Position numbers and translations under genes: made by a program. From Trichormus sp. ATA11-4-KO1 (GTDB lineage Bacteria > Cyanobacteriota > Cyanobacteriia > Cyanobacteriales > Nostocaceae), in NCBI GenBank assembly GCA_019358915.1, contig JAHHIM010000065.1:305453-369452 (forward strand): DNA of 64,000 nucleotides. Reading direction: 5' to 3'. The notes under the pieces were generated by a model. The model had not been told where the DNA came from and did not search any database. It worked only from the letters and a program-made list of their open reading frames with translations. This document shows, piece after piece, positions 44,214 to 46,989 of the stretch; the first letter of the stretch is position 1, and each line of letters starts with the position of its first letter.

Positions 44214-44700
44214 ATGAGCGATCGCCTATTTGTCAAGAAGTTTTCCGATGGACATTTTTGACTCATCAATCCTAAATCCCAATTGGGATGTGACTTTTCT
44301 CATGAATGTAGGGTTGCATTTGCTTGATATCTGGTCTGTATTTGAGCTTCCACAACACAGCTTTTCTGAGAAATTTGGAAAAATTACAGAGACACAGCAA
44401 TGTATCAAAACCCTATTTTTATTGAAACCTGATTGATGTTGAGTTGAGATCCGGGTGAAAACGGAAATATAGCTTTACAATAATTAATGTTTATTTAAGA
44501 TAAATAGCTTTACATATCATAAAGTAGCAAATTATGGAATTAAGACTTCACTAAAAAAGTGCTAAAGAGCTAGTACGTTGATGAGGCAGCTCTAAGAAAA
44601 AATATTTTCCCCAAAAAAATTACTGAGAGGAAGACTAGGCGCTATTGTTGCTACTGGCATCACTAACTAAAAAAGTGAATTTTAGCTGAAGAAATTATGA

Positions 44701-44741
44701 TGGCTAGGTTAGCTAAGGCAATACCCTAACCAACCTAGCCA
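44701..44741. terminator. Inverted repeat, possible terminator
   Basis: TGGCTAGGTT...AACCTAGCCA 10-bp perfect stem. Confidence 0.4.
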
Positions 44742-44841
44742 TTACTTGTTTTCTTGAGAAAACTCCCACCATAATCTCTGTTATCTAAACCACAATGTAC
44801 ACAACGTTTAATGTATAAGCATTTGACGTTGTGAATTTTTT

Positions 44842-45642
44842 CTACAACGTTGAGAGTGGATACTTGACTAACATCTCTGAGAAAGGTATCCACCGTTCAT
44901 CATGTGTGTAAACAATGATACCGTTTTTGGTGTTTTGGCTGGCAACAACTAATTTCTTCTTGTAGGCTAATGTGTACCATTCCTTAAAAACATCCAATTC
45001 AGATTGTTGTCCAATTTCTTCATTAGGAATCCAACCCTCTTCTATAGCTTTTTTAAGCCATGCTCCTGGCTTTTCAATATTGCTACTAGCCATTGCCTCT
45101 TTTAAAGCTTCTATTGCATTTAAAACAGTTTCCTCTGATGCTGACTTAATAGTTTTTGTTAATGTAGCATTCAATTTAATTCCGATTAAGTCAAGTTGCT
45201 GTTTAACATTATCACTGATATCAGAACGTCCAGCACTTTTCTTATCTAATGAAGTGACCTTTAAATTTTCAGGTAAAGTAACAGGTAATTTTGTCTGAGA
45301 AATACGAGATGCTTCTAACTGTTGCTTCAACTCTGCATTTTCAGATTTTAGCTGTGTATTTTCAACCTTGAGCCTTTGAGCTAAATCATCAGCACCTTGA
45401 GGACTAGCTTGTAAGCCTAGTTCTGTAGCAGTCCAAACATCACCGCTCTTTTTAATTATCTCAAAATCAGGATTGATAACAAATTTATATTGACACTTAT
45501 TGCAGTAATACCTTTGCTTACCCGATTTTTTTAAACCTGCTTTGCGTAAATTTTCACTAGCACATTTAGGACAACTGGTTGTTAGTATTTCAATTACCTG
45601 AGTTTGAACTCTTTCTCCATCTTTGAATTGTGGAATTGTCAT
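44842..45642 (-). pseudogene. Chimeric ORF: zinc-ribbon fragment of a TnpB-like recombinase fused to a TnpC-like C-terminus
   Basis: CPKC...GKQRYYCNKC and DVWTATELG, then abruptly a coiled coil and EKPGAWLKKAIEEGW; no integrase catalytic domain. Confidence 0.6.
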
Positions 45643-46318
45643 CTCTAGGAATTACATAAATCTCATTTACTCCTTGTGAACGAATATCTTCATGTCTTAA
45701 TCCTAATAACTCACCAATTCTCATGCCTGTTTCATAGAGTAAACAGATAATAAATTTGTCTCTAATTCTTTTACAAGCATTAACTAATTCCTTAACCTGC
45801 TGCGAAGTTAAACATCCTGGGAAAGTTTTGGGTTCTTTAATTTTTAGTAATCGTGTTTTAACTTCCTTTCCTTTGCTTATGTGGTGTAAAAATGGCTTGT
45901 ATTTTCGTCCTGGTTGCATCTGATAGCGATAAGAATTAACCCCTTCAGTTGCTCCCAATCGCTCATGAAATTCATAAAAACCACAAACAGTGGTGAGGGC
46001 ATGATTAATCGTCTTTTCTGACCGTTTAGACACTTGTGGTTGAATGGATATTACTCCTGGATCTGGGCTTCTTAGCCAGTGAATAAAATCTGATAACTGC
46101 TCAAGATTTACTTCCCTCCAATCAATTTTTTTATCTCCTAAAAATTCCCAGAACAGCTTTAGGTTGTTGGCATAGACCCTAACTGTATTGGGTGACTTCT
46201 CTAAACTGTCTAAGTAACGTAGGTATTTTTGGATTGGCTCTATGGGTAGATAGTCGTCACCCAGCACGATCCATATTGGGCGAATTGAATCCGGTAGCTG
46301 ACCTTTTTGAACTAACAT
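45590..46318 (-). pseudogene. Truncated Tn554 TnpA-like tyrosine recombinase
   Basis: SPNTVRVYANNLK, LYETGMRIGELLGL (first catalytic Arg); similarity ends after VIPRDDN; HxxR and catalytic Tyr absent. Confidence 0.85.
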
Positions 46319-46548
46319 ATCGTCATTGTATACGTTATAGAAACAGTAAAGTTAATATTAATACAATTTAATAAAAAGAACTCACAAATAATCGTTGTTG
46401 TTGTTGTGTAAGATTATTTATAAGTTATAGATAATCTTTAATTTGGCGGTGAGAGGATATAGCAAAGTGCTGAGTGCTGAGTATCAACCCAGTGGCTTCA
46501 GTGCTTTGAGCAATCAATAATGTCCTAATCTATGTGACTACGGCTATA

Positions 46549-46989
46549 TCAAATTGCTCGTTGCCGCATATGTTGGTCATTAAGTCCCTGCTTAATCCAA
46601 TTCAAGCATTCATATTCAGATTTGAATAACTTTGGTGCTGCAATATTATTCAATAATTCTGGTGGATAATGGTCGTAAAAATATTTACCTCCTTCTTGAA
46701 AAACGATAATCAAGTTATTACCGTATACGTAGCGAGACTGGAAACTATCTCCATGACTGATAAAATCTGCATGTTGGTCAATATGTTCTTTAGCAATATC
46801 AACAATATTGTTGATGCTACTGCCATAGATACTTGCTGGATTCTCGGCTTTATGAAATTTGCTTCTACGTCCAATTTCTGACAAGAGTTTATACGAATAA
46901 ATTTCGTAAGTATCTGCTTTGCCAAAAACAAATGGAATGATGAGATATCCTTTATATGAAACTGAATTTTCATAAAGAAGACGACTCAT
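46549..46989 (-). CDS. Conserved cyanobacterial hypothetical protein
   Basis: 146 aa with RBS AGGAG; two similar halves (SYKGYLIIPF / VYGNNLIIVF). Confidence 0.75.
   Translation of the reverse strand: MSRLLYENSVSYKGYLIIPFVFGKADTYEIYSYKLLSEIGRRSKFHKAENPASIYGSSINNIVDIAKEHIDQHADFISHGDSFQSRYVYGNNLIIVFQEGGKYFYDHYPPELLNNIAAPKLFKSEYECLNWIKQGLNDQHMRQRAI

Follow-up and report, generated by a model that had tools for sequence, protein, structure and literature searches.

What governs the choice of insertion site in Tn554-type transposons, and why these elements need two recombinases, is described as unresolved in PMC3414803 and PMC10214605. A locus in the cyanobacterium Trichormus sp. ATA11-4-KO1 bears on the first of them: in the window, the whole 64,000-nucleotide stretch of DNA that was analysed, a recombinase element occupies the loop of a hairpin, which raises the question of what that hairpin is and whether its use is a habit of the element's relatives. 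The explanation that we favour, and regard as probable, is that a dead, internally deleted Tn554-family transposon has a decayed IS200/IS605 left end as its site, where it occupies the six-base loop, and that its cyanobacterial lineage is likely to seek out the hairpins of IS200/IS605 ends through an exchangeable N-terminal half of TnpB, its second recombinase. Sequence comparison directly shows where the element ends, its empty site, the unequal 6-mers at its junctions, what its target is and that IS ends are enriched among the sites of the clade.

Boundaries and decay of the element

The Tn554-type element, internally deleted, spans 1654 bp (44781..46434, minus strand). By comparison with relatives it begins with TTATCTA at 44781 and finishes with TAGATAA at 46434, giving a 7-bp terminal inverted repeat whose distal copy lies at 44781..44787 (plus strand) and whose tnpA-proximal copy, at 46428..46434 (minus strand), is the common start of 26 clade junctions. 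These limits agree with an empty site in genome G001, with an alignment to a copy in genome G747, and with contigs of other sequencing runs, in which the match breaks off exactly at 44781 (run X11) and at 46434 (run X5); runs with small word shares served for boundaries only. The element is single-copy in its own genome, and the likely source run carries it on one contig with zero differences. Among 61 genomes searched, G001, of the same genus, has the orthologous locus without the element; its junction matches, letter for letter and with one ATAATCT, the empty site that the earlier note had predicted, and a 33-letter pattern found G001 as its sole match among 121 genomes. The insertion is real and its bounds are exact. 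No circle joint, excised circle or empty site turned up in the contigs of run X1; rare forms are lost from contigs, and the present copy is a dead one.

Some readings attached to these ends had to be revised. The two copies of ATAATCT pointed out beforehand are present at 44771-44777 and 46431-46437, as are the two TACACAAC units, one within the distal end (44798..44805, plus strand) and one inverted at 46403-46410. The proposed ends were off by +3/-4 bases, and a 7-bp repeat across the junctions, the supposed crossover, occurs in 4 of 42 two-ended elements. ATAATCT appears twice because target arm and element end share the letters ATAA and each of the junction 6-mers starts with TCT; it is a by-product, with no target duplication. 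Measured from the actual ends, the offsets of TACACAAC are 18 and 25, so that the apparent symmetry is accidental. The distal unit is conserved, with variants, in relatives and presumably has a function, and CAAC repeats below the proximal terminus (46394..46410, minus strand), found upstream of tnpA in most relatives, are presumed recombinase arm sites. Comparison of the elements suggests that TnpA is the likely binder of the ends.

The window copy retains parts of tnpA, tnpB and tnpC. It aligns to the 3767-bp G747 copy with 92% identity over 800 bp and 90% over 619 bp, and two internal deletions account for the rest. One removed about 400 bp of tnpA, including the catalytic Tyr, leaving a gene (45590..46318, minus strand) cut after about residue 228, with the first catalytic Arg kept and the HxxR, second His and Tyr missing. 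The other, of about 1.7 kb, fused what remained of tnpB to tnpC: the resulting in-frame gene (44842..45642, minus strand) runs from the first ~80 tnpB codons, with one zinc ribbon (an IS1/IS1595 zinc-binding domain at aa 24-55), into the C-terminal part of tnpC; its N-terminus is nearest to those of L119 (49%) and L089 (44%), both hairpin users. Given the two deletions the copy is dead and cannot move by itself, a point that the earlier note does not mention; it is an inert fossil.

Intact relatives measure 3.8 kb and carry three genes, which encode two tyrosine recombinases and a DUF6262 protein (TnpC). The closest of them, L119 in G747, resembles L417, a Tn554-type element behind a JAB-domain gene on an Enterococcus plasmid, in TnpA (45%, E 3e-118), TnpB (41%, E 1e-111) and TnpC (39%, E 9e-20). 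In these relatives TnpA keeps R, HxxR, H and Y, most of which the window copy has lost, and R248, H359, R362, H385 and Y394 of TnpB, residues again lost in the window copy, are invariant. At E up to 1e-100, 61 of the 389 family genomes have a TnpA homologue, and at E up to 1e-80, 40 of 401 genomes at the level of the order; a quick TnpA tree groups the window copy with L119, L315, L091, L118 and L314 (support 85).

Many relatives (L024, L025, L043, L045, L071, L084, L089 and L148) have an ORF after tnpC that by eye resembles the start of a DnaB helicase. The G003 element (L021, 3307-4907) is present in six equal-length copies despite a frameshift that splits tnpB after the zinc ribbon, for which an assembly error, a programmed shift or mobilisation in trans are options. 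At L114 and L029 one element's distal end runs straight into the proximal end of another, as in tandem or nested copies, and L029 is itself a 234-bp miniature with both ends. L040, L161, L162 and L166 are a lone proximal end at one orthologous site after a gene stop in four genomes, an old remnant, possibly kept for a function.

The target and the junction 6-mers

The element splits a solo, decayed IS200/IS605 left end, whose TTAC and 5' arm lie on the distal side (44742..44774, plus strand) and whose 3' arm lies on the tnpA side (46441..46457, plus strand), as judged from the G001 empty site and the family consensus. Homologues of the empty site were found in 145 of 389 genomes across the family, a tally that includes hits to a neighbouring repeat, and the best 28 foreign loci among them were used for the detailed analysis. 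A same-strand TnpB begins downstream in 17 of these 28 (two of the misses fall at contig ends), and TTAC stands upstream of the conserved stretch in 23, with conservation beginning there. The empty site is identical to the left-end consensus at 36 of 42 positions, and the window's TTAC (44742-44745) keeps the family's spacing, ten bases before GAGAA. The IS608 left end consists of TTAC plus a subterminal palindrome (PMC3201880), and in the target, too, a tetranucleotide cleavage site is followed by an imperfect palindrome in subterminal position; a tnpB or tnpA gene downstream is a feature of the homologues and not of the window's solo end. These features identify the target as a left end, now decayed, of an IS200/IS605 family that encodes TnpB.

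The earlier note had suspected a dispersed repeat or the end of another element rather than a housekeeping gene and had thought of an IS200/IS605 right end. The family was named correctly and the side was not: none of the 28 homologues has a confident tnpB upstream, and the family continues with GATGAAT, not TCAA/TCAC. Insertion at the apex of the hairpin that removal of the element was expected to rebuild holds. That hairpin, already decayed in the G001 empty allele, folds weakly (z -0.5 on the plus strand, z -2.1 on the minus strand), as against z -2.6/-2.8 for an intact member of the same left-end family. The core proposal of a Tn554-like element with precise ends at a hairpin apex is supported.

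The family search found a single TnpB gene in the element's own genome, on another contig. In the same genome, tblastn with a relative's TnpB nuclease gave no match and the loop pattern found no sister hairpin; Rfam returned only chance matches on the empty site, and a plasmid search gave three weak matches. An 84-bp dispersed repeat (46466-46549) with 24 matches of at least 60 nt in the own genome comes right after the left-end remnant and replaces the left end's usual tail; G001 has an extra insert inside it. On the other side, at 44700-44742, lies a palindrome with 19-bp arms, which has no second copy in the own genome and to which stretches in L004 and L009 look similar by eye.

Two unequal 6-mers flank the element. 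TCTTTA, at the tnpA end (46435..46440, plus strand), is the 6-bp overlap of the present target, lies in the hairpin loop and is found identically in the G001 empty site; the foreign TCTCTG, at the distal end (44775..44780, plus strand), is missing from that site and would be a footprint of the previous one. In 2 of the 28 loci (L291, L306) TCTCTG is a loop variant of the target's own left-end family, which makes another end of this kind a plausible earlier home. Chains of copies in other genomes agree with this: four copies in G499 line up in a single linear chain, every distal 6-mer repeating the proximal 6-mer of the copy that precedes it, and in G003 all six distal 6-mers match some proximal 6-mer within the set. 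One G747 copy (L120) carries seven bases instead of six. The two 6-mers are identical in 12 of 38 junction pairs; six rows whose distal end was doubtful, in tandem or of 7 bases had been set aside before counting, and same-genome copies are non-independent. Among the 26 non-identical pairs the last base matches in 26 and the penultimate in 22, and the first four positions in 9-14; nine of the 26 end in A, T or C, which looks like a need for short homology rather than for a fixed base.

A footprint rule of the same polarity is described for SEs and Tn554-related elements in PMC10214605 and PMC12486829. From the copy chains and the Tn554/SE literature we infer that the element would be excised as a circle whose joint keeps the 6-mer adjoining the tnpA end, and that integration would place this 6-mer at the distal junction; a copy-out step is probably involved, and the last one or two overlap bases appear to need a match between donor and target. 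Membership in the Tn554 family, together with this junction rule, we hold to be almost certain, as the tnpA-tnpB-tnpC order and homology, the catalytic residues in both recombinases of intact relatives, and the presence of 6-7 bp of the previous site at the distal junction instead of a target duplication all agree with it. Tn554, Tn558, Tn552-II and Tn6674 have in common with the present elements the gene order, a DUF6262 TnpC and imperfect terminal inverted repeats; the differences are a cyanobacterial host, a longer TnpC, the lack of resistance cargo and targets other than radC. The hosts named for the family are Staphylococcus/Enterococcus or Firmicutes (TnCentral, 10.1101/2021.05.26.445724; PMC10214605), while PMC3414803 describes actinobacterial relatives, with the roles of the two recombinases given there as not established, and PMC8138268 defines the TnpA subgroup. 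Instead of the Tn554 site in radC (att554), IS ends, tnpB/iscB, comM, recQ, TPR codons and palindromes are hit; since PMC12486829 finds a family member in a different gene, radC is no strict mark of the Tn554 family.

The integrative elements SE-6283 and SE-6945, which circularize with a strand bias, likewise combine two tyrosine recombinases, a 6-bp footprint of the same polarity and target specificity (PMC10214605). They come from Gammaproteobacteria and have a Tfp/CDS2 gene that is lacking here, and copy-out, which is proposed here, was shown in them by experiment (PMC10214605). The four core genes of SE and GInt elements, including Tfp/GinC, compare with three genes in the 3.8-kb intact copies, and the RIT arrangement of three tyrosine recombinases with terminal inverted repeats of 34 bp compares with a third gene for a DUF6262 protein and 7-bp repeats.

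Hairpins of IS200/IS605 ends as targets of the clade

For the clade as a whole, flanks were compared with a library of 211 hairpins picked automatically beside family-picked tnpB/iscB genes, with a threshold at the 99th percentile of 500 random sites; the library includes some non-IS repeats, seen among control matches, and was drawn in part from genomes that also supplied the sites. A family habit of hitting IS200/IS605 ends, which the earlier note had surmised, is borne out by proximal flanks above threshold at 14 of 26 clade junctions (11 of 19 when repeated rows for a single site or family count once) and by distal flanks at 8 of 14 (five non-clade rows having been taken out of 19), as against 4 of 300 ordinary controls and 8 of 176 strong genomic hairpins. 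The 12 proximal flanks below threshold include the window's own, which scored 28.0, at the threshold and not passing, with its family excluded from the library, and L030, where TnpB begins 535 nt away. Further misses are four flanks that look like hairpins and either find no counterpart in the library or fall slightly short of the threshold, and five rows that are not IS-like; one old shared site (four rows) and L159 have no likeness to IS ends. A generic end profile left the window's site unscored, and a first, untrimmed flank library was too noisy and insensitive. An end pattern gave 25 matches in 18 of 389 genomes and its reversed control none, and a metagenome scan gave four matches, one of them a new site.

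Individual genomes give the same picture. One left-end repeat of G747 has eight copies, and in four of these the loop is taken by an element; in G003, 6/6 copies sit in right-end loops, in both orientations, five of them with TnpB ~90-120 nt off. Clade insertions use left and right ends in both orientations, always at the hairpin apex, and the loop type GAGTAC is constant at L118, L091, L170, L314, L326 and L328. At L118 and L314 (G688) the left and right flanks belong to different IS ends sharing a GTACTC loop and were probably rearranged between copies, so the targets rebuilt there are not real sites. An assignment of the L118 and L170 flanks to IscB ends was rejected; they are reversed TnpB right ends, with an RRXRR gene 2 kb away. 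All in all, we consider a preference for IS200/IS605 ends quite likely.

Such a preference could in principle be one for shape alone, any short-looped inverted repeat or cruciform serving and IS200/IS605 ends being merely the commonest dispensable ones. The apex crossover, regardless of stem length or orientation, and the unrelated palindromes used by ribbon-less relatives fit this explanation, which we nevertheless judge unlikely. IS-end likeness is seen in just the 8 of 176 strong genomic hairpins mentioned above, while a T or A run adjoins 41 of them; single lineages hold to one loop type, such as GAGTAC; and the window's site is a weak hairpin (-3.4/-5.7 kcal/mol) next to a strong one, the palindrome at 44700..44742 outside the element, which was left unused (-10.3/-13.5 kcal/mol). 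A far stronger palindrome ~35 nt away bypassed for a target already decayed is a single case in favour of sequence being read over shape alone. A short-looped inverted repeat probably aids homology-poor strand exchange and is probably insufficient alone.

Recruitment by the IS machinery, whether the Y1 transposase on a single-stranded hairpin or a TnpB-RNA complex, in place of DNA reading by the element itself, is less probable still, and would make sense of the convergence of many lineages on IS200/IS605 parts (22 of 65 non-clade sites near tnpB/iscB) and of the binding of TnpA-Y1 to these hairpins (PMC3201880). It sits poorly with a window target that is a solo decayed end in a genome whose one TnpB gene is on another contig, with the use of both strands, and with comM, recQ and TPR users that share the same architecture.

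The TnpB front half and the wider family

Outside the clade, a tnpB/iscB coding sequence lies within 210 nt of 22 of 65 sites (score above 99.5% of 2000 random windows), namely right-end loops in G003 and fixed tnpB codons hit in unrelated genomes. The remaining non-clade targets are comM, recQ, an FtsK-like Walker A motif, TPR repeats and AT-rich palindromes, with several unclassed; the names comM, recQ, FtsK and TPR are readings of translated motifs, not tool labels. The AT-rich palindromes, which have no IS link, host the ribbon-less relatives L075, L123, L124, L136 and L144, and L397 apparently sits in recQ at a second position, the N-terminal helicase motif, and has a divergent TnpB N-terminus. 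PMC9881144 mentions a tyrosine-recombinase element in a cyanobacterial comM. The idea that the family targets the ends of other elements rather than housekeeping genes thus applies to the clade and not to the whole family, in which some lineages sit in comM, recQ, TPR codons or plain palindromes.

Insertion could also be loosely specific, by a short overlap match with weak preferences, and the pattern could then come from selection, insertions in other mobile elements being harmless. IS ends and tnpB genes are indeed dispensable, and survival favours insertions in dispensable repeats; several relatives have unclassed sites, and L146, identical to a comM user, sits at a different site. At the same time one loop is reused again and again (6/6 in G003, 4/4 in G747) and the same codon is hit in unrelated genomes, a repetition for which survival alone cannot account, and we regard this explanation as very improbable.

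The part of the element that may do the reading is the front half of TnpB. In many cyanobacterial elements the first ~180 TnpB residues of Tn554 give way to 0-4 zinc ribbons, and this half varies far more than its neighbours. Across 29 elements in 8 target classes, which were assigned by the analyst, partly by eye (L067 by eye; L078 relabelled after an earlier 23-element run), with elements lacking a full TnpB left out and with kin sharing labels, the tree of the TnpB N-half required 7 target-class changes, the minimum possible, compared with 8 for the catalytic half, 11 for TnpA and 18.7 for shuffles; the earlier run had given 7, 7 and 10 for the N-half, the catalytic half and TnpA. L067 and L068 agree at 93% in TnpA and 85% in the last 200 TnpB residues, with 29% in the N-terminus, and their targets differ; L399 and L148 (TnpA 95%, N-terminus 45%) differ in target as well, while L074 and L097 (TnpA 64%, N-terminus 62%) share the same tnpB codon. 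An out-of-sample case, L058, has a TnpA nearest to recQ users and an N-terminus nearest to comM users, and is located in comM; among 41 further loci it alone told the two predictors apart, and nine new comM rows may be a single inherited insertion.

A single zinc ribbon is present in 9/9 hairpin-apex users and in the window remnant, and also in comM and recQ users, while six palindrome users have none. Hairpin-class N-termini are just 34-64% alike, L106 has an N-terminus 55% like that of the hairpin user L087 and yet a non-hairpin site, and the entire TnpB, not the N-half alone, follows target well (8 versus 7 changes). Weighing these comparisons, we lean towards the front half of TnpB being a swappable target selector, in which the zinc ribbon or ribbons and the core-binding domain would read the target; with this half swapped, the element would be redirected to a different family of IS ends, to a tnpB codon, or to comM or recQ. 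IS621, IS1397 and IS1111-attC also insert into dispersed palindromic ends or repeats (REP, BIME, attC hairpins), with enzymes of other families, IS110 (bridge-RNA) and IS3. A modular target selector swapped between elements is likewise known from Tn7-like elements with exchangeable TnsD/TniQ, for which comM is a common target, the difference being that those have a DDE transposase and a separate targeting protein, whereas the likely selector here lies within the recombinase (PMC9881144). A literature search returned no report of Tn554-type insertion in IS200/IS605 ends or of a zinc-ribbon selector; subscription journals and supplements, which were outside it, may hold one.

By its genes and junction rule the element is a member of the Tn554 family, beyond the hosts and the target named in TnCentral and PMC10214605. 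Natural pairs with near-identical TnpA and different TnpB front halves and targets make the selector directly testable by domain swaps. An end hairpin with an insertion would no longer be recognised by the Y1 transposase, and at a right end the scaffold of the TnpB guide RNA would be cut in two. A wider reading, which we offer tentatively and with slightly more doubt than belief, is that the cyanobacterial Tn554-type transposons are a radiation parasitising IS200/IS605 (TnpB/IscB) elements and other targets and retargeted by exchange of the TnpB N-half, with 0-4 zinc ribbons and the core-binding domain as a modular DNA-reading code: a naturally reprogrammable integrase that would also put RNA-guided nuclease elements out of action by breaking up their genes, their ends or the hairpins of their guide RNA. 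If the TnpB front half is indeed the selector, the family would offer a compact integrase retargetable through a protein module, and would reveal a layer of conflict among mobile elements.
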